A stretch of DNA of 63,613 bases, filler included, from Reclinomonas americana ATCC 50394 (Eukaryota): NCBI GenBank assembly GCA_048213135.1. It is 11 parts of 11 records of this genome, joined end to end, with 100 filler letters (N's around TTAATTAATTAA, not from the genome) between each part and the next. Parts side by side here need not be neighbours in the genome. Positions count along the whole stretch, not along the records: positions 1 to 12,052 come from AFZH01016975.1; 10 more parts are not named here. The stretch is one strand, 5' to 3'. Numbering within the stretch: the first letter of the stretch is position 1; every line of letters starts with the position of its first letter. A program made the position numbers and the translations under genes. Under the pieces are notes generated by a model, which saw only the letters and a list, made by a program, of their open reading frames with translations, did no database searches and had not been told where the DNA came from. Below, piece by piece: positions 1-63,613 of the stretch.

Positions 1-500
1 CGGTGTTAGCGATCGCGAATCGAACCGACGCGTACGTCGATATGGAGAGGCAGTGTGTTCTCGACAGTGTTCGCTACTCTCCTCTCTAGCAATCATCTCC
101 AACGCTGATCCCCCGTCCTCCCTCCTTCCCACCCTTCCCACAACGCTGATCCCCCGTCCTCCTTCCTTCCCACCCCTCCATTGTCAAAGTTTGCTTCCTT
201 TTTTGTCACTCCGTTTCCGAACCGAACACTCGTCGGCGATTGGGGGTTAATGCCATCTCACCCTGTCGGTGATACCAACACGCCGTGATGAGACAGAGGT
301 GCATCTGCATGCGACACTCTCCTCTCGCACCAACCGACGCCGCAACTCCGCAGAAAACAATCGCGAGCGCGCTGCCTCGTTTGTCCCATCGCCATCGTTT
401 CCATTTTTGGTGGTTTTCTTTCTTTCGGGGAGCAGACAGACAGCGCTGTTTTTGTGTGTCAGAGGACGAATCCGTCTCAAGAAGAGAGAGAGACGCAGAG

Positions 501-3500
501 ATGAAGTTTGGCACATACCTCAAGCTGCATGCGCTGAGCAAGTGGCGCGGGCACTACCTCCGCTATGACCGCCTCAAGGAGCAACTGAGTTTGCTTCTCG
601 CGGCCATTCAGTCGTGCAAAGAGGCGACAGACTCCTCTGCTGGCAGGTGTTTCTCTCTCTCCCTCATACATACAGCAGACATACAGACAGAGAGAGAGAG
701 GAGAGTGTACACCACGCACGAAAAGAGCACTCGGTGAAGAACGCTCTTTTAGACACTATTGACGTCGCTGCAGCTGATGCAAACTGTTTTGTGTGTCTCA
801 TTCCACATCATCTCCTCGCACACTCGTCCTCGCTGTGTCTCTCTCGCGTACATGAGTTGGCGTCATGATGCGGACCGAAAAAAAGTGGTCGTGCTCACAC
901 GCTGTGCGTGGACATGAGAGAGGCTTTTCACGCGCGCGCGACTCACACTCTTCCCCCCCCCCCCTTTTGCTATTTTCTCCTGAAGCAGTGCGGCTGCCAA
1001 GGTCGACTTTATGCCCGAGGAGAAGGCCTTCGAGGAGGAGATTCGAGAAGCCATGCGGTAAGATCGCAGCGAGTATTGGTACCAAGCAATCAAAAAAGGG
1101 TGCATATTTTCTTAACTCCTGTACGCGTGTATGTGTCTTCTCTCTCTCTGCGTGTGTCTCCACAGCGACTTGAACAACTTTGTGGCGTCGCAAAAGTCGT
1201 CTATTGACGCGCAACTGCTTGCGTTTGAGCGACGATTCGCCGCTGATGATTCCCCGCCTTCGCCTTCGACTGCTGCCGCTGAGTCGCAGAACAACGCGAA
1301 TGCTGTGCCTGCATTGACACGACGCATCAGCTTCCGCAGCTCGTCTGCTGCTGGCGGCAAGTTCAGTGCCGCACTGGAGGATGTGGCGCGCTTCCGAACA
1401 CTGTGCGTTGATTTTGTGCAGCTGTGGCACTTTGTGCTGCTCAACGCCGAGGGCGTGCGGAAGCTGCTCAAGAAGCACCGCAAGCACACGGGCTACAAGG
1501 ATGACCCGCGCTTGGATCCGGCCATTGCCTACAAGCAGCCGTTTGCGGAGCAGGAGTCGCTGACGTGGTTTTGTTGCGCAGTGTGTCTCGTTGGTGTCAT
1601 GACGCGCGCTCCTTTGGTTCCTGATTGCTCCTCCTCATCCCCATGCAGCCAAGCGCTTCACCTCTCTGCGCACCGTGTTCCAGGAGCGCGCCTCAGCGCA
1701 TGTCCGCGAGACCGAACTCTTCAAGCAGCTGCTGGAGATTGATCTTTCGCGCGCCCCGCTGCTGTTGGACGGTGGTGCGACCAAGGGCGCTGACACGCCC
1801 ACTCGCTCCGCACTCCACCGCGTGCTCCACCATCGTCAGTTGGTGCCACTTGTGCTCGGGTGGACCCAAAAGGCACGTTCACATTTGCTGTATCTCACAC
1901 TGATTGCTTCCCTCTTTCTGCCACCCAACAACTTGCTGATTGCCCACGACGCTGCAGTTTGTCGACTCGTTTGCCAGCGCTCTGACGCTAGCCGTGGTGG
2001 CACAGTTCATGTGGAACTCTCAGTCGTCGGTTGACGACGGCGGCAGCGTGCACATGATTGGATTCTTGTTCGGTGCAGTAGTGCTCGTTCGTGGACTGGT
2101 GCACATCTCCGCCGCGTATCTGTGGCGTGAGACCGCACCCGGTGCCAGCTGGATGTGGAGTCTCCTGCGCGCCACTGCGCTTCTCCTCATGGCGTCCCTC
2201 GGGGTGTGTGTGTGCCATATCATGAATATCGCGAGTCTGTCCTCACACCATTTGGCCTCTCGCTGCTATGTGTGCAGACTCCTTCGACGGTGTGGCGCTG
2301 GCGACTGTTCTGTGTGCTTCTGCTCGTCGACACCTGGTGCGCGGCGTACGCCAAACTCACGACGCGGGCTCTCGTCGAGGAGAGCAATGGCGGTGACTCA
2401 GCCGGCGGCAGCAACGGCAAGCAGAAGCGCAAGTCGCGTGGTGCGTACCTCCCTCTCCTCCTCTTCCACCTCCACGCGATCTCACTCTCTCGGTGCTCAG
2501 CCAATGCCAGTGAGGCGTACGAGAAGCTCGCGGGCCAATCGGCACCGTCGAGCAGCAACAGCAAGGATCAGGAGGGCTCCGAGTCGTTGCTGCGTCCACG
2601 CACTCGTCTCTTGGTGACACGTGTGTTCTCGTTGTGTGGCACGGGCACCGCAGCATCCGCCGCCTTTGCCGGCATGTCAGTGGGAACGGGCTTGGTGGTG
2701 GCGGCAGTGGCCGTGATGGCACAGCTGCCCGTCTTCTACGCGTACTTTGTGAAGCGTCGTGCCGCTGCGGAGACCGGCGGAAGCGCAACCTCCTCGCGCA
2801 ACCTCCGCCTGACCGCTGTGTCGGTCTTGTCGCAGCACAGCGCCATTCGCTGGCTGCTGGTGATCGCTCTCGCCGGCACTGGCGGTGGTGCGTCGGTGTG
2901 GCTGTCGTGCGCGTTGCTGAGTGTGGCCGTCCGATTGGGTCAGTTGGTGGCCCAGATGTCGGTCAAGAAAGTCACTGGGTTCGTGCATCCTCTTCTGTTC
3001 CTGTGTCGACGATCACACGATGAGCTCATCCCCTCTCTGGCAGCACGTACTCGCCCCGCTTGGCCTCGGCCATGGTCGCCATTAGCCTCGCGCTCCACGG
3101 AACGCTGGCGGCACTGTGCGATTCGAGCCTGTCACGCTTGCTGGCCGACTCGGTGGTCACGAGGTGCGCGTTGGGTGGTGTTCGTGAAGCCGCCTGTCGC
3201 CGATTACTCACTTATTTCAAAACTCTCCAGCGAGTCGGTGACGTTCGCCAACCCGCGCTTGTTGCTGGCCGCTGTGGTGTTGGCCGCGCTCGGCGGCGTC
3301 TCGTCGGTGGCGCTGGCCACGTCGGCGGATCGCGACAAGGAGAAGCAAAGCGGCGGCGACGCTGAGTCCCGTCATCCGTCGGCTCGAGCGCGCCCGTGGC
3401 TCTTCCGCTTTGTGCGTTTCTCATTCATTGTGCTGGCCAGCATCATCATGGAGGTGTGTGTGTTGCGGGATGAAAAACTGTGGCGCTTTGCATTGCTCTA

Positions 3501-6500
3501 CTCACGCTCTTTCCGGCCAACAGCCATTGGCGGGCGACGCTCTCGGCCTTGTGGTGCTCACGCTGTCGCTGAGTGCATTGTCGCCGGTGGTGGGCGCCTC
3601 GGAGGTGTGGCTCGCTCCCAAGCTGCGCAATCGTGTGTCGTTTGGCAACGCCGACCAGCTGGCGGCGGAGCTTGGATTCGAGCGCCGAGGACGCTTCATT
3701 GTGGTGGAGGGGTTGGATGGTTTGTTGGGGCACAGGGGAGGGAGAGGGGAAGGGAGAGGAAAAGGGAAAGGGAGGGAGGGAGGAGGAGAGGAAGAGAGAG
3801 AGGGTAACACGGAGAGTGAGAGAGAGAGAGGGAGGAAGAGAGGAGGAGAGGACTATACTTGGAGAGTGAGTGTGTGGGAGAAAGATGTACATATCAGTGT
3901 GCTGCTGGAGAGAATGTGCACGGGAGCAGAGAGGCATGCACAGCTGCATCTGCACAACTGACAGTATGCGCGAATGGCAGGTTCCGGCAAGTCCACCCAG
4001 CTTTCCCTGCTGGAGATGAAGCTGCGTCTGGCGGGCTACGATGTGGTGACGACGTGCTGGAACTCGTCGTCCATGATGTCGGAGGCCATCAAGGGCGCCA
4101 AGCGTATGCGCCGCATGCGCCGTCGCACTTTTGCTCTCAGTCAGGCGGCCGATCTCACGGAGCAGCTGTACGATCTCGTGATTCCGTCGCTGAGGTGTGT
4201 TGGTGTCTTGCAGACTGCGATACCTTTCTGTTACTGAAAACTCCCTCCCCCACCACCAGTGCCGGCAAGATTGTACTCTCCGACCGCTACTTTTTCACCA
4301 GCCTCGCCCGCGATGTGGTTCGCGGAAACGATCGCAGCTGGCTGACCAATCTCTACTCGACGATGATCCGACCGGATCTGGTCATGTACTTCCGCGTTCC
4401 GGTGGAGACGGCCATCTCCCGTGTGGTGAAGCGACGTGTCGAGATCTCGTCGCAGACGGCCAACGATTCCGAGGACGAGGGCCAGGAGTCGGACGACGAT
4501 GGAGCCGGCACGCAGGCGGACACGCAGGTCAGTGGCACTCGCCGTGCCGCCAGTGGTGAGTACGCCGAGGAGCGATTCCGCACCACGTCTGGATCTGCGT
4601 CTGGATCGGCTTCCGGCTCACGCAGCCGCTCGGCCGCCGCTGATGCCGTCGACGTTGAGCCACATGCAGGGGACCACGATGACATTGAGCATGACGAGGA
4701 CCACGATGCCACCGAGCTGGTGACCGAGGGCGAGAAGGTGGAGCCGCAGCTGTCGTATTATGAGGCTGGACTTGATTTGCACTTGGACAATGATCCGCTC
4801 AAGGTGGGCAGGGGGAGAAGGGGAAGGGGATGGAGAAGAGAGGATGCACGGGGAGGGTGTGCAAGAGAGAGAGAGAATAGAGAAGTGGTGGTGTGCGGGG
4901 AGATAGAGGGGATAGAGAAGAGAGGATGCACAGAATGAGGGACGAAGAGTGGGAGAGAGAGAGAAAAGAAGAGAATTGAGAAGTTGAGGTGCGCGGGAGA
5001 GGAAGTGTGCACGGAAAGGGAGAATGCAGGGAAGTGAGTTTGTGCAAGAAGGGAAGGGACGGAGAGGAAAGTGAGATAAGAAAGCTGCAGAGTGCGTTGC
5101 AGCAGCTCGCCAGCTGTGGGATACGTGATCGAAAACTAACTTAATCCTCGTCTTGTCTTGCAGAATTTCGTCACCTTCCAGACCATGGTGGCCCAGCAGT
5201 ACGACAACATGGCTGACGGTACACCCCTGCATGGTCTCGTGATCGGCTTGTCCTTGTAATGACGCGCTGTGTTTGTTGCAGAGTACGGATTCGAGGTGTT
5301 CGACGCCACTCAGGCCATGGAGCTGCAGCACAACCGCGTGATGAGTCTGGTGAACCAGACGCTGATGCGTGGCCATCCTGTGCGCACCAAGAATCGCAAC
5401 GTGTTCGACAAGGATCCTGAAGACGATCCGCCAGCGATTCGCGCCAACTACATGAAGAAGCAGATCACCACCGGTCTCAACTTCTTCTACCGCACCTCTC
5501 ATCAGGTGTGTAACCTATACCAGTGCGTGGTGGCGGAGATGATGCTGACCAGCACTGGTTATTGCTGCAGACCATGCTGGAGCGCATGGAGGCACTGATG
5601 GATGTGCAATCGATGCCGCGTGTGCTGTTGCACGGCAATCCGCACGTCGACAATTTTGCCAAGGTTCTCGATTTGAGCGCTTCTTCTTTCTTTTCACTCG
5701 TGTGTGTGTGTCTGAGTCCCGGTTTGTACGCAGGGTGTGTTGGGCACGGCCATGATCGATTTCGATCGCTCCAAGTTCGGTCCGTACGCCTGGGACCTCA
5801 TCCGTCTGATGGTGTCGCTCTCCATTCGCACCAAGAACCCGGCCAGCCACGTGCTGCAGTGGTCGCTGGTGCAGAGCATCATGGACGGCTATCGCTGGGG
5901 ATTCCTGCGCCCCTCGGTTCCGTTCCGTCAAATGAGCAAGCTCACGGTGCGATCAAAGGTGGTCTTGCAAAGTTGCCCACACACTCTGCTTACTTTCGAG
6001 TTCGCCAGGTCATCAAGCCGACGGCGGATGAGCTGAGCATGACGGCGTACCTGAAGGCGAACCGCGGCTGGGCGGCGCAGATGCGCGAGAACCCGCTTGC
6101 TGCTGACCACGAGGATGTGGTGACGCTGGTGCGCCTATATGCGGAGAACACGGAGAATCCGAGTCTGCTGACCGAGTTGCGATGGTTGCGGTGGTGGTTT
6201 TGGGGGTGGTGATTACTGACGCCACAACACTCGCAGCTATCGCATTGAGGAGGCCGGCAAGGGCTTTGGTTCATTCCTGGTCATCCGCTACTTGGTGGTG
6301 ATGGCACCGGTCGACGAATCGTCGGGCGCTGATCGCATTTTCCTCGACATCAAGGAGTCGCGTCACGATCCGGACACGCAGTTCTTTACCAATCCGTTCG
6401 AGCACAGCGGCAAGCGCATGATTGTGGCCTCGGACTTGTATGCGCCTGGTTGGGGCGATCATGAAGTTGCGTGACGGGAAAGAGGGGGGAGGGGGAGAGA

Positions 6501-6679
6501 TGGGAAAGGGGGAAGGGAGGGAAGGGAGAGGCAAGAGACTGGGATGCAAGTACTTGTCGTGGTGAGAGTTTTGCTGTCGGCGAGGGAGTGGATGTTGTGG
6601 GATGAGCCAGAAGAGAAGAGCGCTTGCTGATGAGGTACACAGTGAGTTGGTTGGCAAGGGAGGGAGGGAGGGAGGGAGG

Positions 6680-6719
<40 letters not shown>

Positions 6720-7224
6720 AAGAAGAAAGAGAGAGATATGGATGCGAAAGCAGCACAAGTCTGCTGAGTTGAAGATCGTCTTGGACAAGCAGTCGTTTTC
6801 GACCTGTATTCTATGGGGACAGTGGCGTTCCATTTCTCTTTCCCTAACGTTCTCCCACACGCAGGGGTACTGCACGTACAAGGGCATCGAGTACCACGTT
6901 CGCCACATTCCACCGCACAAGGCCAAGCTGACGGGCCAGCTGAACCCGGCCGATGCCAAGGAGTTCGCCATTGCCGTGGCGACCCAGCTCGGCCGTGGCC
7001 ACCGCCTCTCGCTGCAGCCAAAGTGGATGCCGCGTGATCTGCTGCTGCATCTGGATGAGTTGAGTCGCTGCCGGAGAGGAAGAGAAACATCACCGCTCAC
7101 ACTGTTTGTCATCTTTGCGCGCAGCAACATGCCGGCCATCACTGACACGGCGAACCAGCTGCGTCAGGAGCTCACTGCAGCATACTGGCGATACCGCTCC
7201 AAGGCCTCGGCCACGTCGGACTGA
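501..7224 (+). CDS. Multi-exon fusion protein: SPX domain + ~11-12 TM MFS-like region + thymidylate-kinase-like P-loop domain + DUF2252-like kinase-fold domain
   Basis: SPX start MKFGTYLK..W..HYLRYDRLKEQL (501) and end LNAEGVRKLLKKHRKHTG (~1440-1495). Hydrophobic exons 1958-3620. P-loop IVVEGLDG|SGKSTQ is split by intron 3720-3980, followed by WNSS, SDRYFFTSLARD, PDLVMYF and YYEAGLD. Then FFYR, VLLHGNPHVDNF, IDFDRSKFGPYAWDLIRL, GFGSFLVIRY, LDIKE, YHVRHIPPHK, QLGRGH; stop TGA 7222-7224. GT-AG joins keep the frame; the junction near 1565-1648 is uncertain. Confidence 0.85.
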
Positions 7225-7456
7225 TTTGTGATATCGCGACTGCCACAAAGAAAGGCAAAGGAGAGAAAAAAAGCAAGCAAAAAAACCACGGAAAGTATCA
7301 ATGAGGAAATAAATCACAGGGACACGCTGCAGCGGCTCTGCGCTGCGTGCCGGACGAGTACGGAGGAGAAGGATCTCTGGAAAGTCCCACCACGCATTGC
7401 GACTTGTCCCCCGAAGCATTGATTTTTCTTTTTTCACGTTCGTGCGCAAAGGTCGC

Positions 7457-10400
7457 ATGCCGAGGGACTCTACAACAAGAGAGGAGCGCGATGAGCTCGC
7501 AGCAGGTGAAACGTCGCAAGATATAATGGCCACTGATGCAGCTGCAGTGGCGGTTGCGGTGCCAGTGGAAGTGTCGCCTGAGAGTACACATGATGAGGCC
7601 GTGCGAGGCAAGACACGGTGGGAGGCTGTGTGGGCGTTCTTGGTGGGAGTGTTGATGACACAGGTGAGTGAGACAGAGACAAGAAGGAGGAGGAGTGGAG
7701 TTGTGAGAGTAAGGAAAAAAGGGAGAGTCTGACTTGAGATGGTGTGTCTTTGTTGTAGGTGTGGAACAATGCGAATCAGGTCGTACAACCGCTGATTGTG
7801 CTCAATCTGACTGGGGATGTTGAGTGGGAAGACGTTGATGTGCATTACAATTGCCTCTGTCTCACTTGCATGCTGGCGTTCTGCAGCCGTCTCTGGTGGC
7901 TTTCTTGTTGGTGAGATCGGCAGTGGACCATTTTTTTTTTGTTTTTCCCACATCTCGTGCCGCTCACTGCATGGTGTGTTTGTTGGTAGATGGCATATGC
8001 TGTGGCGAATGCCTTCGGCAGCGCGTTTAGTGGATTCGTGTACCCGTTCTGCTCGCCGAGGTTCCTGTTGGTGGTGTTTTGCCTTGGACGGTGAGCGAGG
8101 GGTGAGGGTGAGGGGAAGGGGGGAAAGAGAGGCGCAGAGGAAAGAGAATGAGAGGGACAGAGACAAGGAAGAAAAAGAGGCGAGCAGACTGCCGACAGCG
8201 TGTGTGGAAGGAGGCTGAGAGGGACATGAGATCTGAAGGTGAAGCGAGATGGAAGGGCGGAAGGGAGCGATGATGCAAGAAAGGCATGAAGGACGAGCGT
8301 GTTGAAGAAAGCTGGGAAGTGACACCAGTGAGTAGTGCGAGTGATGCGAGGAATGCACGAAGAGTGAAAGAAGTTGGCAGCTCTTACGACAGTAGAGGAG
8401 AGAAGGAACTGATGCAAGGAAAGTGTGAAAAAGAGTTTGTTGATGGAGCAAGTGGAGAGATGAGAGGAAGGTAACAGTCATGCGTGATGAAGAAAGCTGG
8501 AATAGAGAGAAGGAGGCACGCTGTAAGATGACACTTGGGATTTGACACCTGTGAGCAGTGCGAGTGATGCGAGGAATGCATGAAGAATGGAGGAAGGTGG
8601 CAGCTCATACGACAGCAGTGGAGAGAAGAAGACAAGCTGAAGCCTGGCAGGCAAGGGAGTGATGTAAGGAAAGCACGAAAAGGAGTTTGTTGATAGAGGC
8701 AAGCAAATAAAAAATGAGTGGCAGCAGTGATGCGTGGTTAGCTTGAAAGACAAGTGTTAACGAAGGCTGAGAACGCCACTGAACATGACAGACAGATGTG
8801 AGCAGAATGATGGGGACGTAGAGATTGGTTTGACTGAACGAAGAATGCAGAGAGCTTGAGTTCGATAGACAGCATGAGCGATTCAATCGAGTCAGAAGAA
8901 GTGTTGAACAGTTGCAGTGCCGTATGCAACCTTTCTTTGAACAAGAAGGCGCTTGAGAGATAACATTGATTGTTTCTTGGTTGCGCTCACACCGTTATTA
9001 CAGCTCGTGTTGTCAACTCGCTGTCGCCCTGTGTTGCGTTCACTGTGCCATGTCTCCTTTTGCGATGATGCGCTGACACTCTCCCACAGTGTACTTGTCA
9101 AAATGGGGTCCTGGCTGGATCATTCTCATTCTGTTCGCATGTGATACGGCGTTCATCGGTGAGAACGGCCAACCAGTGTCCTGCTCAGCAGTCTCTCCCA
9201 AGCCTCATTTCTCACCGCAGGCTGTTTGGACACGGTTCGCATGTCGTTCCCACGTTCGGCATACGGCTCCGACAAGGCCGCCCTGAACAAGCTCAATGCC
9301 GACTATCAGTTCTCTTTCGACCTCGGCACTCTTGTCGGTGCGTGTCTCCCTGGCAGAGGGAGAATGCGTGAAGCCGAGCAGCTGCTCACATGAAATTTCT
9401 CAGGTCCGCTGCTGGTCGGCTTTGTCATGTCATACACGGAGGACGTGTACGTCTCCAGCTTCCTTGCACCAGCCGGATTTGTTGTGGCGGCCTTTACGTT
9501 CTTGTGAGTGATGCAGACGGCAGAGTGTGTGCCACTAGATGCTCACCACCACCGCATGTGCGTTAGGTTTGTTCCTCCCGTCAAGAGTGACGCCGAGGCA
9601 GCACGGGCCGCCAGCGGTGGCACTCTGAACAAAAAGGCCAGCAACAAGGAGATCATGAAACAGCAGTCGCCGTGGGCCACCTGCCGGTACTTGTGCGGCA
9701 ACACCAAGATGGCGGTGGCCTTCTTTTCGTTCCTCACGCTGCAAGGTGAGTTGTGTGTGTTGGAGAAGTCAAGGAAGGTGACCTCACTCCCTCACTCCGT
9801 GCGCAGTGTATCGGCTTCGCAGCGTGTACTCGTCGCTGTTTGCGACGCAAGTGCTGCATTCACAGACGTATACGGCGTGGATGGTGTGTGTGCGGTTGCA
9901 AGAAAGTGATATGTGGCACAGTCGCTTGGTCTGACGCACGGTATGTGTCCCTTTGCAGATGGCTGCTTTCGGTGCTGGCGGCATGCTCGGCTCAGTGATT
10001 TATCGCATGCTGGAGAAGCGCGACAAGATCTCCGCCGTGTGGTTGACGGCCTTTGCGGCCATTTCACTGGCCGTGTTTTCGTTGGTGTGGATTCCGGAGG
10101 TGGTTTTCGAGACGTGGCCCGTCGGCGTGCGTTTTGGCATTGCCGAGGCCGTCATCTTTTTCATGCTGACGGGGAATGTCATGGCGCGTCTGGCGTCCAC
10201 TGTGGTGTTGCAGGAGGAGATGAAGAGTTGCGGGACAAGGGGGAGGGATGGGGAGGGGGTAAGGAGGGGAAGGGGGAGAGGGGGGAGCGGAGAGGGAAGG
10301 GGAAGGAGGGTAAGAGGGCAGAAGGTATGTATCCTGTTGTACTTCGGGATTCTGAATATGTTTCATGAGTTACGCGCTCGCGTGATATAGAGATCATATC

Positions 10401-11486
10401 TATACGCGCAGTGTCGTGTGCGATCGTGAGCTTCTTGAGCGAGTCACACTTCTACCTTGTGCGAGTCAATCATGCAACCGAGCGATATTGTGATGTCGAA
10501 TCCACTCGTATCTGTATGCTATACGTGTGTGCATAGTTAGTCTCAACGTGTCATACCCTCCTGAGTGACGCGAACTCCATGAGTATGCATTACGTCTTTA
10601 CTAACGGCGTGTCTCACTCTTGTACCGTACAGGAGAGCGCAATGCTGGAGTCATGGCGCTGGTTGCGTTTTTCGTGTACGCACTCTTGCGCTGCCATGAG
10701 TGCGACGCGCTGACTGTTCCATTTTCGTGCAGCGTGGCTTCCTGACCAAGTGCGTGGCCGGTGGATTGCAGGGACTGCTGGGCCTGTCGTTCAAGCTCAC
10801 CAACAACGACGGCATCCTCTCGTTTGTCATTTTCTCGTCGGTTACCCTGGTGTTTGGCGGGCTGCAGGTGGGTGGCGGGATAAGGGACAAGGAGTGGGGT
10901 GAGAGAGCAGAGGTGGAAGTGTCTCTTGTGAAGATGGTGAAGGGAGAGAGTGATGAATGAGAGAGAGGGACAATGATACTGAGTGTGTAATGTCTCTGAG
11001 AGAAAGCGCGAAGAGCATCTGTAACACTTAACAGTTTTAGTTGTAGAAGAAAAAGTACACGAGACTTGGCGATCACTGGTAGATGCTCATTGTTGTGTAT
11101 GGACCAGTGAAGTTTCTATTATTTGAGCAGCTGCAGCCTTTCGAAAGTGATCATGACTGTGTCATGCCTGTGAGAGTGTGAGGTAGGTAGAGAAAGGTGC
11201 GACTGTGGGAGGCAGGGCAGGCTTGATTGGTGAAGCGTCTACACTTGGTGGTGCACTCCCACTCATCGCTTGTTGCGCACAGATTATGTTTGCCATTCTG
11301 TACCGCTGCGTCGGCGCCGAGTCCAGCTCTGGACAGACCCGCAAGCCGGAGAAGAAGGACATTGAGATGGCGACCCGGAAGAAGAGCAGCACCGATGGAG
11401 ACGAAGGAGAAGAAGGAGAGGGAGGAAGCACCGGCAATCTGCGTTTGTTGGCGGCAGATGAGCAGCGGTCGGGTGCAATGCAATAA
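7457..11486 (+). CDS. MFS transporter (DHA3/macrolide-efflux-like), multi-exon
   Basis: Spliced translation gives PLIVLNLTGD|PSLVAFLL|MAYAVANAFGS, LNKLNADYQFSFDLGTLV|GPLLVGFV, MAAFGAGGMLGSV and many TM segments; acidic C-terminal tail; stop TAA 11484-11486. Confidence 0.75.
8310..8760. repeat. Degenerate ~225-bp direct repeat inside an MFS intron
   Basis: GTGCGAGTGATGCGAGGAATGCA...GGCAGCTC.TACGACAG.AG.GGAGAGAAG...GAGTTTGTTGAT occurs at ~8335 and ~8558. Confidence 0.6.
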
Positions 11487-11726
11487 GTGACCGCAAGTAC
11501 AGCAGTGTGATTGTTTTTTCGTAGCCGACTCATTATCAATACCGGACCTCGATATTTGACTCCGAACAGACGCAGGAAGCCTCTGCTGCCATCGACATTG
11601 CATCGTCGCTGGTGACAGGGACACAATAGGGATTTGCACCGCGATGGCCGTCGCTGGCTTCCCAGCCGAGTAACACTTCCACAGTCCGATCGATCGGCCG
11701 GGCAGTGAGCGTTAAATCACTCGCAA

Positions 11727-12257
11727 ATGCCTCCGCGAAGGAAGACTGTGCGCAAATCGCCCGAAGAGCGCTTCTTTGAGGCATGCGAAGGTACAAGAGA
11801 GAGAAGAGGGAGAAAGAGAAGAGGAGAAAGAGAAAGGGACAGATTGACAGAGAGAGAGGGCGAGAAAGAGAGAGAGAACGAGAGAGAGAGAGAGAGGAGA
11901 GAGAGGAGGGAGGGAGGAGAGAGAGAGAGAAGAGTAGAGGAAGAACGAGGAAGCAGACGAACGACGAGGACAAGAAGAGAGTGAGTGGGAGAGACGTGAG
12001 ACAGACAGACAGACAGACAGACAGAGAGAGAGAAAGAGAGAGAGAAGAGAGANNNNNNNNNNNNNNNNNNNNNNNNNNNNNNNNNNNNNNNNNNNNTTAA
12101 TTAATTAANNNNNNNNNNNNNNNNNNNNNNNNNNNNNNNNNNNNNNNNNNNNAGAGAGAGAGAAAGAGTTCAGGAAGGAACAGGGAAAGGCAGACAGACA
12201 GGCAAGAAGAGAGTGATTGGGGAGAGACTGAGACAGACAGACAGACAGACAGACAGA

Positions 12258-51815: not shown

Positions 51816-52876
51816 TTCTGCAAGTGCAACGGTGAGCGATCATGAGTGGAGCCCCGAGGTCACTCTGCATGCTGATCATGTTTTGACTTGTTTGCTTCTT
51901 TCCCCCGTCAGACTACGTGTCGTGCAACCTGCACGGAACCTGCAACAGCAGCGGCGCCTGTGTGTGCACTGACGGATGGACGGGTGCTGACTGCAAGACG
52001 GCCCCGCCGCCACCGCCGCCACCGCCGCCGCCACCACCACCACCACCGGCCAGCCCAGTGTCCTGCACACCCGACGCCAACGGCAACGACAGCAAGTGCG
52101 GCGACAACGGCAACTGCCAGAAGGTCGGCTCCGTGTACCAGTGCGTGTGCCACTTGAACTGCATTGGCGGTGTTTGCGTCACGTGGACCGACAGCGCGGC
52201 CGGTGCCTGCTCCGACTGGTCCAACATTGTGCCGGCCGGCAGCTCGTTCGCCGGCAAGACCCTCGGCGAGTGGACTGGCGAGTGGTGGAAGTTCGCCCTC
52301 AGCCGCCCCGTGGCCGTGCATCCCTTTGTTGATGAGACCAAGGACCTGTCGGTGGGCCAGCCTGCCGATCTGTGGTTCCTCGGCGCCTTTGGCTCGTCTC
52401 TGTTGGTCTCGGCCGGCACCACCCGCATCCGCAGCTTCCAGGTTCCCTACGGCAAGGCGCTGATGTTCCCGATCTTCTTGGTCGCCAACTTTGACGACAC
52501 TCGTGTCATCACCGGCAACAACGCGCCCTTCTCCGGCGACCTTGACACGGAGGAGAAGTTTCGCGCGGATCTCACCACGCTGCAGGCCGACCCCGCCAGC
52601 ATCCGCATCATCATCGACGGTGTAACGTTCCCGGTGGCCTTCGGTGGCCGCCTGCGCTCGCAGTCGCCTCTGGTCACGTTCGACATTGTGGCGGGCTCGC
52701 TGGCGGATGGCCTCGGCGACAACTACTGGGCTGCCGACACCACCACTATCGACCTCGTCTCTGACGGCCTCGCCTTCATCGTCAAGTCGCTGACGAAGGG
52801 CTCGCACGTGGTGCGCGCCGAGTCGATTCGTTCCGGCGTGTTCAACGTCCGCGAGTTCCGCCTCACCGTCGTTTAA
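51816..52876 (+). CDS. EGF-like + polyproline + prokaryote-type uncharacterised domain protein, copy A (5' end in gap)
   Basis: CNLHGTCNSSGACVCTDGWTGADC, P14, a second Cys-rich module, then GKTLGEWTGEWWKFALS..WFLG..VPYGKALMFP..DG..LTKGSH..RLTVV*. Confidence 0.8.
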
Positions 52877-59684: not shown

Positions 59685-60782
59685 TCACAAACGGAGACGG
59701 TCGTCGGTGAAACAGCGATGAACAACAACTTCGGCCTCCTCGAACAGGAAGCAACGCATCACAATCTCTGGGAGGCAGCGCGGATCTTCGTCTTCTACCT
59801 CTTCGTCTTCTTCCTGCATCTCCTGCACAGCGCACATGGCCGCCCGGGCACAGTCGAGCTCCTGGCAAGCGAGACCGCATGGTGAAGACCACACACGCAC
59901 GGTGGAGTCACAGCTCCCGCTTACAATGTGCTGCCCGTCAGGTGAAATGGCAACCGACCACACGTAGTTTGTGTGTCCCTCCAGCCGTCGCACCTCCTCT
60001 CCACTCTCCATAGACCACACTCGCACGGTCTTGTCTTGACTCCCACTCACGATGTGTTGCCCGTCAGGAGTGATGGCCACGGTGCGCACCCAGTCAAAGT
60101 GACCCTCAAGCCGTCGCTCCTCCTCTCCGCTCGCCATTGACCACACGCGGACAGTGCTGTCACTGCTCCCACTGACAATGAGCTCTCCATCGAGAGCGAC
60201 GGCGACGGAAAAGACGAGACCAGTGTGCCCCTGCAGTCGGCGCACCTCCTCGCCAGTCCCCAATGACCATACTCGCACTGAGTAATCATACGAGCCACTA
60301 CCACTCACAATGTGCTGGTCATCGGCGGTGACGGCGACAGACCACACCGCCCCAGTGTGTCCTTCCAACCGTCGTACTTCTCTGCCACTCACCAACAACC
60401 ACACGCGCACAGTTGTGTCGGCACTTCCGCTCACAACGTACTCGCCGTTGCGTGTGATGGCGACAGAGTACACGGCATCCTTGTGCCCCACCAAACGTCG
60501 CACTTCCTTCCCGCTCGCCAGCGACCACACTCGCACCACTCCGTCTGTATTCCCACTCACAACGTACTGGCCATCGGGAGTGACGGTGATGCACTTTACC
60601 CAGTGCGAGTGCTCATTCAACAATCGCACTTGCTCTCCTCGCGCCAGTGACCACACGCGCACAGTTCTGTCATCATTCCCGGTCACAATGTGCCGACCGT
60701 CAGGAGTGATGGCCACTGATCGTACAGCGCGACTGTGGCCACGCAGACACTTGCACGGGAGGGAAGGGAGAGGCGAGGTCAT
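59685..60782 (-). CDS. Intronless WD40 protein copy 7
   Basis: 7 repeats + tail PCGLACQELDCARAA..PRCLPEIVMRCFLFEEAEVVVHRCFTDDRLRL. Confidence 0.9.
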   Translation of the reverse strand: MTSPLPSLPCKCLRGHSRAVRSVAITPDGRHIVTGNDDRTVRVWSLARGEQVRLLNEHSHWVKCITVTPDGQYVVSGNTDGVVRVWSLASGKEVRRLVGHKDAVYSVAITRNGEYVVSGSADTTVRVWLLVSGREVRRLEGHTGAVWSVAVTADDQHIVSGSGSYDYSVRVWSLGTGEEVRRLQGHTGLVFSVAVALDGELIVSGSSDSTVRVWSMASGEEERRLEGHFDWVRTVAITPDGQHIVSGSQDKTVRVWSMESGEEVRRLEGHTNYVWSVAISPDGQHIVSGSCDSTVRVWSSPCGLACQELDCARAAMCAVQEMQEEDEEVEDEDPRCLPEIVMRCFLFEEAEVVVHRCFTDDRLRL

Positions 60783-61036
60783 TGTGAAGAGATGAAGAAG
60801 TAATTGTTGTGCAGGACGTTTTGCACATGCCCTTCAACAGGGCATGGCATGGCTTTCNNNNNNNNNNNNNNNNNNNNNNNNNNNNNNNNNNNNNNNNNNN
60901 NTTAATTAATTAANNNNNNNNNNNNNNNNNNNNNNNNNNNNNNNNNNNNNNNNNNNNTGGCTGTCATTGTGTTTCACAACAAGGATGCCATATGCATGCA
61001 CAAAGAAACAACAGCTAAAGCGCAAAAAACAAATGA

Positions 61037-62143
61037 TCACCAGCGAAGGAGACGGTCGTCCACGAAACAGCGATGCACAATGACTTCGGCCTCCTCGACC
61101 AGGAAGCAGCGCAGCACGACCTCTGGTAAGCAGCGCGGATCTTCGCCACCCTCTCCGCCGTCGTCCTGCATCTCTTGCACAGCGCTCATGGTCAAGCACG
61201 CGCAAGAGAGCTCTAGTTGAGCGAGACCACATGGCGTGGACCACACTCGCACAGTGGTGTCATGACTCGAGCTCCCACTTGCAATGTACTGACCGTCGCG
61301 AGAGACGGCAACCGATGTAACCTCTCCTGTGTGTCCCGACAACTGCCTTCTCTCCTCGCCGTTCGCGAGGGACCACACTCGCACCGTCTTGTCGCCACTC
61401 CCACTCACTACGAGCTCGTTGTCGGGAGTCACGGCGACAGACGACACCCACTCAGTGTGCCCTTCCAGCAGTCGCACTTCTTTCCCTGTCGCCAGCGACC
61501 ACACTCGCACTTTCCTGTCACTGCTCCCGCTCACTATAAACTTACCATCGGCGGAGGTGGCGACAGAATACACCGGACCAGTGTGTCCCCGCATCTGCCA
61601 CACATCCTCACCGGTCACCATTGACCAGACTCGCACCGTGTTGTCAAACAAGCCGCCACCGCTCACAATGTGCATGGCGTCGGAAGTGACGGCGACAGAA
61701 CGCACCGCCCCAGTGTGTCCTTCCAACTGTCGCACTTCGCTGCCACTCGCCAGCGACCACACGCGCACTGTCTTGTCGGCACTTCCACTCACAACGTACT
61801 CACCATCGCGCGTGACAACGGCAGAGAACACCACATCCTTGTGCCCTTCGAGTCGTCGCACTTCCTCCCCGCTCGCCAGAGACCACACTCGCACGGTTCC
61901 GTCTGCGCTGCCACTCACAATGTGCTTGCCGTCGGGAGCAATGACGACGGACCACACCCAGTTGGTGTGCCCCACCAGCAGACGTACTTGTTGTCCACTC
62001 GCCAGTGACCACACGCGCATTGTTTTATCTCGGCCACCACTCACCACGTGTTGGCCGTCGAGAGTGAAGGCGACGGAGAGCACCCCTCGTGTGTGCGTTT
62101 GTATGCACTTGCAGGGAAGGAGGGGAGGAGGAGGCGAGGTCAT
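61037..62143 (-). CDS. Intronless WD40 protein copy 8
   Basis: 7 repeats + conserved tail; intact ORF. Confidence 0.9.
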   Translation of the reverse strand: MTSPPPPLLPCKCIQTHTRGVLSVAFTLDGQHVVSGGRDKTMRVWSLASGQQVRLLVGHTNWVWSVVIAPDGKHIVSGSADGTVRVWSLASGEEVRRLEGHKDVVFSAVVTRDGEYVVSGSADKTVRVWSLASGSEVRQLEGHTGAVRSVAVTSDAMHIVSGGGLFDNTVRVWSMVTGEDVWQMRGHTGPVYSVATSADGKFIVSGSSDRKVRVWSLATGKEVRLLEGHTEWVSSVAVTPDNELVVSGSGDKTVRVWSLANGEERRQLSGHTGEVTSVAVSRDGQYIASGSSSHDTTVRVWSTPCGLAQLELSCACLTMSAVQEMQDDGGEGGEDPRCLPEVVLRCFLVEEAEVIVHRCFVDDRLLRW

Positions 62144-62278
62144 GGTGCTTGTGCGTGCGAGATGACGGTGTTGTGAGAATCACGGGACAACTTCGAACAC
62201 CTTGCTCCATCACAGCATGCCATACATTATCGTGCAAGGCGCGTAGATGAAAACGAAAGATGAGGAACAACCAGACAA

Positions 62279-63385
62279 TCACCAACGGCGACGATCGTCC
62301 ACGAAACAGCGATGAACAACGACCTCTGCATCCTCGACCAGAAAGCAGCGCATCACAATCTCCACGAGACAGCGCGGATCATCGTCATCGTCCCCGTCTT
62401 CTACTAGCATCTCCTGCACAGCCAGCATGGCCGCCCGCGCACAGTCGAGCTCCTGACGCGCGAGACTGCACGCGGAAGACCACACTCGCACGGTGCCGTC
62501 AAGGCTGCCGCTGACAATATACTGAGCGTCGGAAGAGACGGCAACGGATTGCACCGTATTAGTGTGCCCTTCGAGCATTCGTACTTCTTGTCCACTCGCC
62601 AGCGACCACACCCGCACGGTCATGCCTCGAGTACCGCTCACAACGTATTGACCGTCGAGAGTGACGGCGACAGAACGCACCGCGTCAGAGTGTTGCAACC
62701 GCTGCACCTCTTCCCCTGTCGCTAGTGACCACACTCGCGCTGTCGCGTCACTGCTCCCGCTCACGACATGCTGACCATCAGGCGTGAAGGCGACAGAATA
62801 TACAGGACCATTGCGACCCGGCAACTGCCGCACCTCCTCGCCGGTCATCATAAACCATACACGCACGGAGTTGTCAAACAAGCCGCCACCACTCACAACG
62901 TGCTGGGCATCGGCGGTAACGGCGACAGAATTTACCCATCCAGCGTGTCCCTTCAACTGTCGCACTTCGTCTCCTCTCTCAAGTGACCACACTCGCACTG
63001 TCGCGTCCGTACACCCACTCACGATGTGCTGTCCATCCAGAGTGACAGCGACGCACGTCACCCACCCTGTATGTCCCTTCAACCGTCGTACTTCTTCCCC
63101 GTTCTCGAATGACCACACCCGCACTGTTGTGTCAGCACTCCCGCTCACCACGTGTGCACCATCGGGAGTGATGGCGACAGACGACACTCCGCCACCGTGC
63201 CCCTCCAACCGTCGCTCCTCCTTGCCACTCGCCAGTGACCACACTCGCACTGTCATGTCGTCACTCCCACTCACCACGTGGTGGCCGTCGGGAGTAAGTG
63301 CAACAGAGTGCACGTATCCAGTGTGGCCACGCAGGCACTTGCATGCGAGAGGAGGAGAAGGAGGAAGAGAAGGAGTCGACGCCAT
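62279..63385 (-). CDS. Intronless WD40 protein copy 9
   Basis: Starts MASTPSLPPSPPLACKCL; 7 repeats + conserved tail. Confidence 0.9.
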   Translation of the reverse strand: MASTPSLPPSPPLACKCLRGHTGYVHSVALTPDGHHVVSGSDDMTVRVWSLASGKEERRLEGHGGGVSSVAITPDGAHVVSGSADTTVRVWSFENGEEVRRLKGHTGWVTCVAVTLDGQHIVSGCTDATVRVWSLERGDEVRQLKGHAGWVNSVAVTADAQHVVSGGGLFDNSVRVWFMMTGEEVRQLPGRNGPVYSVAFTPDGQHVVSGSSDATARVWSLATGEEVQRLQHSDAVRSVAVTLDGQYVVSGTRGMTVRVWSLASGQEVRMLEGHTNTVQSVAVSSDAQYIVSGSLDGTVRVWSSACSLARQELDCARAAMLAVQEMLVEDGDDDDDPRCLVEIVMRCFLVEDAEVVVHRCFVDDRRRW

Positions 63386-63613
63386 CGATGGTGAGAGCGT
63401 GATGGAATGCGAGGGAGAGGACACTCACTTCGTCGACGTTCAAACAACGCAACAACAAATTCATTCACCAACAAACAAGCAACAGCTGTCTTGATGACCA
63501 AGTTCAACCGTATCCAAAACATCAACACAAACACCAATCTTGAGGCAGCAGCAGGTTTCTTGTGTGTGTGTGTGTGTGTGTTCGCTCGAGCTCTCGCGAT
63601 CGGAGCTCCGAAC

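Follow-up and report, generated by a model that had tools for sequence, protein, structure and literature searches.

A putative SPX-gated ATP/polyphosphate phosphotransferase built on a PPK3-type kinase in a large membrane protein of Reclinomonas americana

The DNA analysed here is a stretch of 63,613 nucleotides (the window) from the eukaryote Reclinomonas americana ATCC 50394 (GenBank assembly GCA_048213135.1), in which 11 parts of 11 records are joined by filler, and the gene in question lies near its beginning, in the part taken from AFZH01016975.1 (positions 1 to 12,052). We propose that this gene encodes a large membrane protein in which an SPX domain would gate an ATP/polyphosphate phosphotransferase built on a kinase of the polyphosphate kinase 3 (PPK3) type, a reading towards which we lean, if cautiously. 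Judged by its sequence, the kinase domain sits in the same branch of the thymidylate-kinase superfamily as PPK3 and not among the canonical thymidylate (dTMP) kinases. A sequence-only reading of the same DNA had already described a PPK3-type, SPX-linked kinase that is not the housekeeping enzyme; this core stood, while the architecture it gave was incomplete. The gene and its domains are as follows.

501..7224, plus strand: whole gene model, with the domain order SPX, membrane region, PPK3-like kinase, DUF2252-like domain
501..1562, plus strand: probable SPX domain, amino acids 1-205, exons 1-3 (Pfam on exons 1 and 3, BLASTP to the eukaryotic relative P0002)
1840..3595, plus strand: multi-pass membrane region, amino acids 273-707 (hydropathy scan)
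3677..5373, plus strand: PPK3-like (thymidylate-kinase-fold) domain, amino acids 735-1050 (Pfam Thymidylate_kin, structure matches, profiles)
5386..7221, plus strand: DUF2252-like (protein-kinase-like) domain, amino acids 1055-1425 (Pfam, identity to bacterial kin, motifs)

The kinase is encoded in the pieces 3677-3719, 3981-4194, 4260-4803, 5164-5218 and 5282-5373. Among solved structures, its two main exons found their best matches in ST1543 of S. tokodaii (2plr/4nzy/4rzx/5h70; E 3.2e-5 and 6e-13), with about 56 identical residues at 136 aligned positions (~40%) over both exons, whereas canonical kinases gave none at E up to 10 for the first exon and at best E 0.084 for the second. Since one exon alone gives E 6e-13, the match to ST1543 is not due to chance. 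Sequence profiles scored the two exons at 121+81 bits (202) for the bacterial three-domain family described below (major facilitator superfamily, MFS, domain, kinase and DUF2252), 91+56 (147) for the catalytic PPK3 type, 71+46 (117) for the regulatory type and 30.5+15.8 (46) for canonical kinases, the last profile being built from four sequences only. The general Pfam family Thymidylate_kin (PF02223) matched both exons at 23.6 and 31.7 bits. With TIGR00041 (cut-off 83.25 bits), one exon scored 32.9 bits and the other had no match at E up to 0.001.

Seven kinase motifs claimed beforehand were all found in the model translation, between 3707 and 5181; they are given here with the other features of the domain.

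3707-3719 joined to 3981-4000, plus strand: EGLDGSGKSTQ
4052-4069, plus strand: TCWNSS
4130-4156, plus strand: FALSQAADL
4279-4326, plus strand: SDRYFFTSLARDVVRG
4372-4392, plus strand: PDLVMYF
4756-4779, plus strand: YYEAGLDL
5167-5181, plus strand: FVTFQ
4091..4126, plus strand: basic stretch KGAKRMRRMRRR, aligning with the K/R-rich stretch of catalytic-type and three-domain relatives and of ST1543
4432..4755, plus strand: acidic/Ser-rich lid insert, amino acids 878-985, 108 residues (alignment, translation)
3720..3980, plus strand: purine-rich intron that splits the P-loop (GLDG / SGKST), GTTTGT...GCAG, 261 nucleotides, G+A 0.77

In the alignment, the window shares GxDGSGKSTQ, WNSS, the basic stretch, DRY..ARD..RG and YYEAGLD with the catalytic-type and three-domain relatives. 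Compared with canonical kinases, WNSS stands in place of EPGGT, the K/R-rich stretch, which the window retains in enlarged form, comes next, ARD..RG takes the place of AYQG.GRG, and there is an extra YYEAGLD segment. The catalytic set is intact (P-loop Lys, DRY, basic lid) and the dTMP-binding 'EP' region is gone; across 34 and 49 family members the P-loop Lys, the DRY Arg and the basic residues of the lid are invariant or nearly so. From the text of PMC12995831 we infer that KGAKRMRRMRRR lines the polyphosphate cleft. The fold points the same way. An AlphaFold model of P0009, an Ancoracysta relative whose kinase domain is 54% identical to that of the window, reached a mean pLDDT of 83 (kinase and DUF2252 mostly >90; 49-sequence alignment), and in a Foldseek search of the PDB its top eight matches were ST1543 chains (E 6e-14 to 7e-12, target TM 0.87-0.92, 31-33% identity), with canonical kinases at E ~1e-9, four to five orders of magnitude behind. 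The ST1543 matches, profiles, alignment, trees and P0009 fold thus all agree with the earlier assignment to a WNSS/YYEAG-D subfamily distinct from housekeeping dTMP kinase.

Could the gene nevertheless be the organism's own dTMP kinase (the CDC8/DTYMK equivalent), fused to other domains? The Thymidylate_kin matches would fit, ST1543 entered the literature as a dTMP kinase (title of 2plr), and relatives exceed the NCBIfam equivalog cut-off by a few bits and are publicly so labelled. In fact, PPK3-like proteins pass TIGR00041 by 3-21 bits (86-104 bits; P0006, P0009, P0021, L014:8576-9460), and NCBIfam contains no PPK3 model; the 'dTMP kinase' labels, carried in public records by the bacterial three-domain proteins as well, arise because catalytic-type, regulatory-type and three-domain proteins exceed this cut-off. 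Against such an identity stand the replaced canonical EP/REPGGT and AYQG regions and the low score with the canonical profile beside that with the three-domain one. Moreover, prokaryotes with the PPK3-like type also carry canonical Tmk: a separate full-length gene (138-162 bits) was found in 4 of 5 such genomes, including both Elusimicrobiota, and in the fifth, an archaeon, canonical Tmk appeared only as a two-piece match. The Sulfolobus pair with this very annotation is a polyphosphate kinase (PMC12995831), and a membrane-anchored, SPX-fused housekeeping version would, in our judgement, lack precedent. We therefore regard this alternative as extremely improbable.

The literature on PPK3 is recent (2024-2026) and covers archaea and a few bacteria (PMC12995831 and its preprint). 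The claim, in the sequence-only reading, of a Sulfolobus pair annotated as thymidylate kinases that forms a family-3 polyphosphate kinase is confirmed by PMC12995831 (J Biol Chem 2026), according to which Saci_2019 and Saci_2020 of S. acidocaldarius make up a heteromeric, reversible enzyme, PPK3. By the same account, SaPPK3 favours ATP formation from ADP and polyphosphate and works as a heterotetramer with a regulatory paralogue, 5h70 (ST1543) is a homologue of the catalytic subunit cPPK3, the dTMP-binding residues are not conserved while the basic cleft is, and operons with both subunits stand beside ppx, CHAD, SixA, NUDIX and pst genes. In the preprint, the 'EP motif' is additionally described as lost.

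Trees of the kinase domain were made from 99 rows and, by a quick search, from 57 rows, with four canonical kinases as outgroup and no Sulfolobales PPK3 or eukaryotic DTYMK among the rows; P0003 (both domains), the second domain of P0001, P0008 and the pair rows beyond the chosen 16 loci were left out of the smaller one. In both trees, the window falls with PPK3-like rows, next to the three-domain family and apart from the canonical kinases (support 97-99), so that a grouping with canonical dTMP kinases, which would have spoken against the earlier assignment, was not seen. In these trees, the window does not lie within the catalytic clade. The backbone runs in both cases from canonical through eukaryotic and three-domain bacterial rows to the catalytic and regulatory pairs, and support 98 is given both to the separation of the pairs from all other rows and to that of {canonical, eukaryotic} from the remainder. 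The basal place of the eukaryotic rows may be due to attraction, because their long branches adjoin the long outgroup branch; a tree in which eukaryotic and three-domain rows are forced to group together is worse by 2.35 log-likelihood units, a difference that does not reject it (p-AU 0.397). When kinase and DUF2252 were concatenated (49 rows), 38 bacterial rows formed a core clade (support 98), three SPX-bearing rows stood together outside it with weak support (53), and P0069, P0072 and P0074, which we take to be eukaryote-like, formed another long-branched group. By eye, the N-terminus of P0069 resembles a degenerate SPX domain, although Pfam gives no SPX there at E up to 1e-4.

Horizontal acquisition, which had been suggested from the sequence, is plausible, although the trees do not support a direction of transfer, the eukaryotic rows not being nested inside the bacterial clade. 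Transfer from bacteria seems the more economical reading, since the PPK3-like branch is otherwise prokaryotic and its eukaryotic members are few and scattered. The idea of a lone PPK-like module shared with bacteria has to be widened: its PPK3-type domain stands, and the shared unit is kinase plus DUF2252 (plus MFS in P0002).

The kinase is intron-bearing, as had been claimed, and even its P-loop is split: the intron at 3720-3980 interrupts a Gly codon after its first base, and further introns within 3680..5365 lie at 4195-4259, 4804-5163 and 5219-5281. The acidic/Ser-rich insertion of ~95 residues in the lid region (~4440-4745) was likewise found, in frame and somewhat longer, at 108 residues. 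It contains 28 Asp+Glu, 15 Ser and 9 Arg+Lys, follows the lid helix and precedes the YYEAG motif in the alignment, and exceeds stand-alone bacterial forms by ~106 and bacterial three-domain forms by ~80 residues. We considered whether it could be a missed intron and rejected this, as it is in frame and the relative P0005, an open reading frame (ORF) 54% identical over 191 amino acids, retains an insert of like length; because the exon ends agree in P0005 and its acidic insert is about as long but of different sequence, ours is taken as coding. The acidic loop measures ~22 residues in the bacterial three-domain forms, ~30 in P0002 and P0009 and 108 in the window, and it appears to be a lineage-specific enlargement of a family loop. 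One might speculate that it acts as an internal polyanion covering the basic cleft.

The predicted gene runs from an ATG at 501 to a stop at 7222-7224, with 20 exons, 19 GT-AG introns and 1425 amino acids, in a region that has 57% G+C and looks like an intron-rich eukaryotic gene. The model was assembled manually, with open frames and GT/AG sites as guides; its splice sites rest on frame, consensus and homology, and the exons from 3524 onward match tblastn alignments of relatives. Intron 3 was placed at 1573-1648, with an alternative at 1581-1653. Sixteen of the 19 introns measure 60-115 nucleotides, the first 339, and the remaining three 261, 360 and 399. These three long introns (3720-3980, 4804-5163, 6466-6864) are purine-rich (G+A 0.70-0.77, with GGGAGG/GAGAGA-like runs), and the introns of 60-115 nucleotides are not.

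The sequence-only link to SPX is upheld by a probable SPX domain at the start of the protein that this gene model predicts, and by SPX in the single ORFs of P0002 and P0009. Pfam was run exon by exon and not on the spliced protein; exon 1 matched SPX (PF03105) at E 1.4e-5 and 25.7 bits, just below the cut-off of 27.8, and exon 3 weakly matched the end of the profile (E 0.038), there being no whole-domain score because introns split the domain. The same region aligns with the SPX region of P0002 over 184 amino acids (BLASTP E 4e-5), and P0002 and P0009 themselves clear the cut-off with 52.7 and 41.6 bits. A basic helix, RKLLKKHRK, lies at 1458-1484; its lysines presumably take part in inositol-pyrophosphate binding. 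The joining of the SPX exons to the membrane exons is predicted from splice sites and from the same domain order in P0002 and P0009, while membrane region and kinase are certainly fused, since a single exon (3524-3719) encodes the final membrane segment together with the beginning of the kinase.

The membrane region shows ~10-12 hydrophobic segments and a hydrophilic central loop in the hydropathy scan. None of its exons matched Pfam MFS_1 (PF07690), whereas the MFS domains of relatives match Pfam at 58-82 bits, and sequence comparison revealed no resemblance to any family or to any relative protein collected in the analysis. It is possibly a very diverged MFS domain. The view that it is a paralogue of the MFS gene that lies downstream (see below) was set aside, as no match was found between the two.

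The DUF2252-like domain was recognised by Pfam in the exon at 5734-5946 (PF10009, E 2.3e-5, 24.1 bits, cut-off 22.3), with a weak APH match in addition; full-length relatives score 36-74 bits. It is 42-46% identical to the DUF2252 domains of bacterial three-domain proteins, and the following motifs are invariant or nearly so in the family.

5631-5657, plus strand: HGNPHVDNF
5755-5772, plus strand: IDFDRS

Members of this subfamily have HGNPH.DN or HGSPH.DN in the loop, and we take the position of its Asn/Ser to be that of the catalytic Asp in typical DUF2252/APH proteins. Structural searches with the domain remained at a low level: Foldseek gave nothing at E up to 0.001 (best 0.067), and VIA-align found N-acetylhexosamine 1-kinase (Z 5.8, the best) and fructosamine-3-kinase (Z 5.2), with cystatin-like partial matches mixed among the APH-type kinases, all scores too low to indicate more than a shared arrangement. 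When the kinase and DUF2252 of P0009 were compared with the ESM Atlas, scores to APH + AAA_33 'bifunctional' clusters were 0.76-0.78, which is chance level. In the cited literature, DUF2252 is classed in the protein-kinase clan with swapped lobes (PMC9758233; a 2026 bioRxiv preprint). Among the proteins that a Burkholderia proteome lists as depleted when phosphate is limiting is one of the DUF2252 family (value -2.70; PMC13700237), a faint independent hint of a tie between DUF2252 and phosphate status.

Relatives were searched with the largest kinase exon and then with P0002. Fifty-two proteins span kinase and DUF2252, most of them of ~1200 amino acids with MFS, kinase and DUF2252; the eight organism-labelled rows among them are all Elusimicrobiota. 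According to precomputed Pfam matches, SPX occurs in two of the 52, namely P0002 (1297 amino acids, SPX-MFS-kinase-DUF2252) and P0009 (Ancoracysta twista, EukProt; 794 amino acids, SPX-kinase-DUF2252, without a membrane part). The window kinase is 50-58% identical to the bacterial three-domain proteins, and both it and the DUF2252 domain are as close to them as to the eukaryotic P0002. An exhaustive phmmer comparison of P0009 with 1.84 billion representatives returned 13,995 hits at E<=1e-3, 195 of them at E<=1e-30, and these relatives include kinase + DUF2252 without MFS as well as MFS + DUF2252 without kinase (P0071, P0075). The PPK3-like kinase is also fused to inorganic pyrophosphatase (InPase), to NUDIX, or to a second kinase-like domain with Ppx-GppA domain III/HD. 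P0083, P0086, P0088, P0118, P0172, P0082 and P0087 are fusion proteins of these kinds, and one fusion protein, of 2575 amino acids, also has the ADP-ribosyltransferase domain of polyvalent proteins. One bacterial fusion, P0003, gave a marginal Pfam PPK2 match (24 bits over 45 residues).

Bacterial gene context was read from the best 80 of 525 confirmed relatives (550 candidate stretches; one genome per prokaryotic species). Three-domain genes account for 11 of these 80; nine are from named Elusimicrobiota (one Endomicrobium) and two from a 'bacterium'. A calcineurin-like metallophosphatase and a second MFS gene adjoin in all 11 loci (L001-L011), and in 8 of them PPK1 follows downstream on the same strand. 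Of the three others, two lie on contigs that end first, and L002 has glucokinase and phosphoglucose isomerase instead. Nearby we also found PHO4 and PhoU-like genes (two loci), a SixA-like phosphatase (six) and an OmpR-type (PhoB/R-like) regulator (four). In P0033 (1438 amino acids), a metallophosphatase is fused at the C-terminus. The PPK1-containing gene row is the strongest independent link of the three-domain family to polyphosphate; two examples are given here.

L006:7482-15179: three-domain gene, metallophosphatase, MFS, PPK1
L005:3190-10851: three-domain gene, metallophosphatase, MFS, PPK1

The sequence-only reading had also mentioned tandem pairs of such kinases near ppx/CHAD/phoU genes, and the neighbourhood check bore this out: in 14 sampled pair loci, where the 73 ORFs nearest the pair were scanned out of 129 listed, polyphosphate-type neighbours occurred in 11 (CHAD 8, Ppx-GppA 5, SixA-like 6, PhoU 2, PPK1 1, PPK2 1), and L019, L026 and L057 had no CHAD, Ppx-GppA, PhoU, PPK or SixA-like neighbour among the scanned ORFs. 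The pair proteins of L030 (genome G004, 7.3 Mb) are nearly identical to those of the Pedosphaera record L058, and the Akkermansia muciniphila label of L030 looks doubtful. The regulatory-type partners of three pairs (L014, L030, L016) keep DRY, have Arg for the P-loop Lys (G.GRST) and lack WNSS; an example from the pairs in L012-L080 is given below. In Saci_2020, the DRX Arg is lost (PMC12995831), so that the way in which the partner is disabled may differ between lineages.

L014:8576-9460: regulatory-type partner, second ORF of the pair

If our proposal is right, the kinase domain would move phosphate between ATP/ADP and inorganic polyphosphate at the membrane, in the direction of either making or using polyphosphate, and the SPX domain would switch it by cellular phosphate status via inositol pyrophosphates, as SPX does for the VTC polymerase. 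The fused DUF2252 would either replace the missing regulatory PPK3 subunit or add a second phosphotransfer step, and the acidic lid insert may regulate access to the basic cleft. A wider scheme, that of a VTC-independent eukaryotic polyphosphate route in which such an SPX-gated membrane enzyme, with DUF2252 in place of the regulatory subunit, would join with its membrane part and the neighbouring MFS in coupling the making or use of polyphosphate to transport across a membrane, seems to us distinctly unlikely.

Several observations weigh against a polyphosphate enzyme of this kind. The DUF2252 domain may be inactive, judging from the Asn or Ser at the presumed catalytic Asp position. The membrane region is not recognisably MFS (-13.2, E 1, with the family MFS profile). 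A strongly acidic loop in the lid is odd beside a polyanion-binding site. PPK1 is already encoded in the bacterial operons, which therefore have no need of another polyphosphate kinase. The three-domain and eukaryotic group is sister to the catalytic and regulatory pairs, not inside the catalytic clade, and because of this position, and of the trees being without Sulfolobales rows, the substrate could differ from that of PPK3. Finally, four profiles found no regulatory PPK3 subunit in the 63.6-kb window, which has one kinase-like P-loop domain only (the three-domain relatives likewise hold one kinase domain and no regulatory paralogue), and the only PPK3 characterised so far needs the regulatory partner of its catalytic subunit for full activity (PMC12995831).

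The sister position and the PPK1 of the operons can also be taken to mean that the kinase phosphorylates another acceptor, a nucleotide or a small molecule that the membrane or MFS part carries, maybe in series with DUF2252, the nearby polyphosphate and phosphate genes then reflecting common regulation by phosphate supply only. The constant fusion to an APH-like domain would agree with this, as would the small-molecule kinases among the weak DUF2252 fold matches and the proteins with MFS and DUF2252 but without kinase. However, the basic stretch and all motifs that separate the catalytic PPK3 type from dTMP kinases are retained, the Ppx-GppA, pyrophosphatase and NUDIX fusions point to phosphoanhydride chemistry, no candidate acceptor is known, and the fold matches, as said, are too weak to mean more than a common arrangement. 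We find this rather unlikely, while giving it weight.

The Asn/Ser in the DUF2252 loop would also suit a protein whose kinase and DUF2252 are sensing modules (for nucleotide or polyphosphate) with little or no turnover, that is, an SPX-controlled phosphate carrier. SPX-transporter fusions are a known kind (SPX-MFS, SPX-EXS), PHO4 and PhoU-like genes occur near the bacterial relatives, and a family-type MFS gene lies directly downstream in the window. Yet the invariance or near-invariance of the P-loop Lys, the DRY Arg and the basic lid residues fits an active enzyme better, and P0009 has SPX, kinase and DUF2252 without any membrane part; we consider the sensor function quite improbable. The SPX-gated phosphotransferase thus remains the account that we prefer.

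The downstream gene begins ~230 nucleotides past the stop of the first one. By tblastn, 7759-7821, 9169-9492 and 9806-10225 match the MFS of P0002 (E 4e-9), P0071, P0075 and the second MFS of the bacterial operons; the encoded protein falls into the subfamily to which the MFS domain of the three-domain family also belongs, and it could be a functional partner. Its place beside a membrane region that is not MFS possibly reflects a split, a co-transferred neighbour or chance. Queries with PPK1, metallophosphatase, PHO4, PhoU-like and SixA-like proteins found nothing in the window at E up to 1e-3. In the rest of the window, 58 long frames scanned with Pfam gave ankyrin, WD40 and EGF-like repeats only, with nothing phosphate-related. 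Short N blocks occur within the window. The features outside the first gene are these.

7458..11486, plus strand: downstream MFS transporter gene, approximate limits (tblastn, intron-rich)
15002-15793, plus strand: ankyrin repeats (Pfam)
30812-37778, plus strand: very long WD40 array (Pfam)
59688-63424, minus strand: second very long WD40 array (Pfam)
51887-52873, plus strand: EGF-like stretch (Pfam)

In the literature searched, no paper joins SPX with thymidylate kinase or dTMP kinase, and no DUF2252 paper treats the SPX/MFS-kinase-DUF2252 architecture or the bacterial three-domain family, which in this literature is undescribed. The main texts of the PPK3 papers mention no MFS, SPX, DUF2252, Elusimicrobiota or eukaryotic member; a supplementary table of PMC12995831 lists one Elusimicrobiota genome with counts 1/2/1, presumably PPK1/2/3, in which the authors' profile may have counted a three-domain protein. 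How most eukaryotes without VTC make or use polyphosphate is unsettled, according to the introduction of the PPK3 preprint. The locus would add a new output domain under SPX control and a new domain architecture for a PPK3-type kinase, and it illustrates the routine mislabelling of PPK3-like proteins as 'dTMP kinase'. The conserved bacterial operon with PPK1 would give DUF2252 its first functional context; if the wider scheme of a VTC-independent route is true, three-domain gene, metallophosphatase, MFS and PPK1 would form a new bacterial polyphosphate module and reveal a first DUF2252 function. Among eukaryotes the family is scarce, the collections searched yielding a handful of protist sequences, and therefore it does not solve the polyphosphate problem in animals.

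Of the known systems, the VTC complex is an SPX-controlled polyphosphate polymerase coupled to a membrane channel and gated by inositol pyrophosphates (PMC10167327, PMC9911596). Like Vtc4 of fungi, trypanosomatids and algae, the protein described here would have SPX at its N-terminus and combine it with a membrane part and a phosphotransfer domain in the cytosol, and the expected logic, phosphate status gating polyphosphate turnover, is the same. The catalytic folds are unrelated, that of Vtc4 being a triphosphate tunnel metalloenzyme and that of the window a P-loop kinase, and the membrane part is known here by sequence and not as a polyphosphate channel. With PPK2 (PF03976), which uses polyphosphate and occurs in two-domain active and inactive forms, the P-loop kinase is shared; PPK2 has a different N-terminal helix and helix bundle (PMC12995831), and Pfam PPK2 had no match on the window exons.

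The resemblance to PPK3 and ST1543 comprises the thymidylate-kinase fold with P-loop, DRX and lid, WNSS for EP, the basic stretch and ARD..RG, and the relatives of the window protein adjoin polyphosphate genes as PPK3 does. Unlike PPK3, the window kinase is single, without a regulatory partner, is fused to SPX, a membrane region and DUF2252, is eukaryotic and intron-bearing, carries a 108-residue acidic lid loop, and branches beside the catalytic and regulatory pairs, not within the catalytic subunits. The bacterial three-domain proteins differ from it in having a signal-peptide-like Pro/Ala-rich N-terminus instead of SPX, a recognisable MFS, no introns, and a place in operons with metallophosphatase, second MFS and PPK1, while the position of the acidic loop, the domain order and the invariant residues are the same in both.

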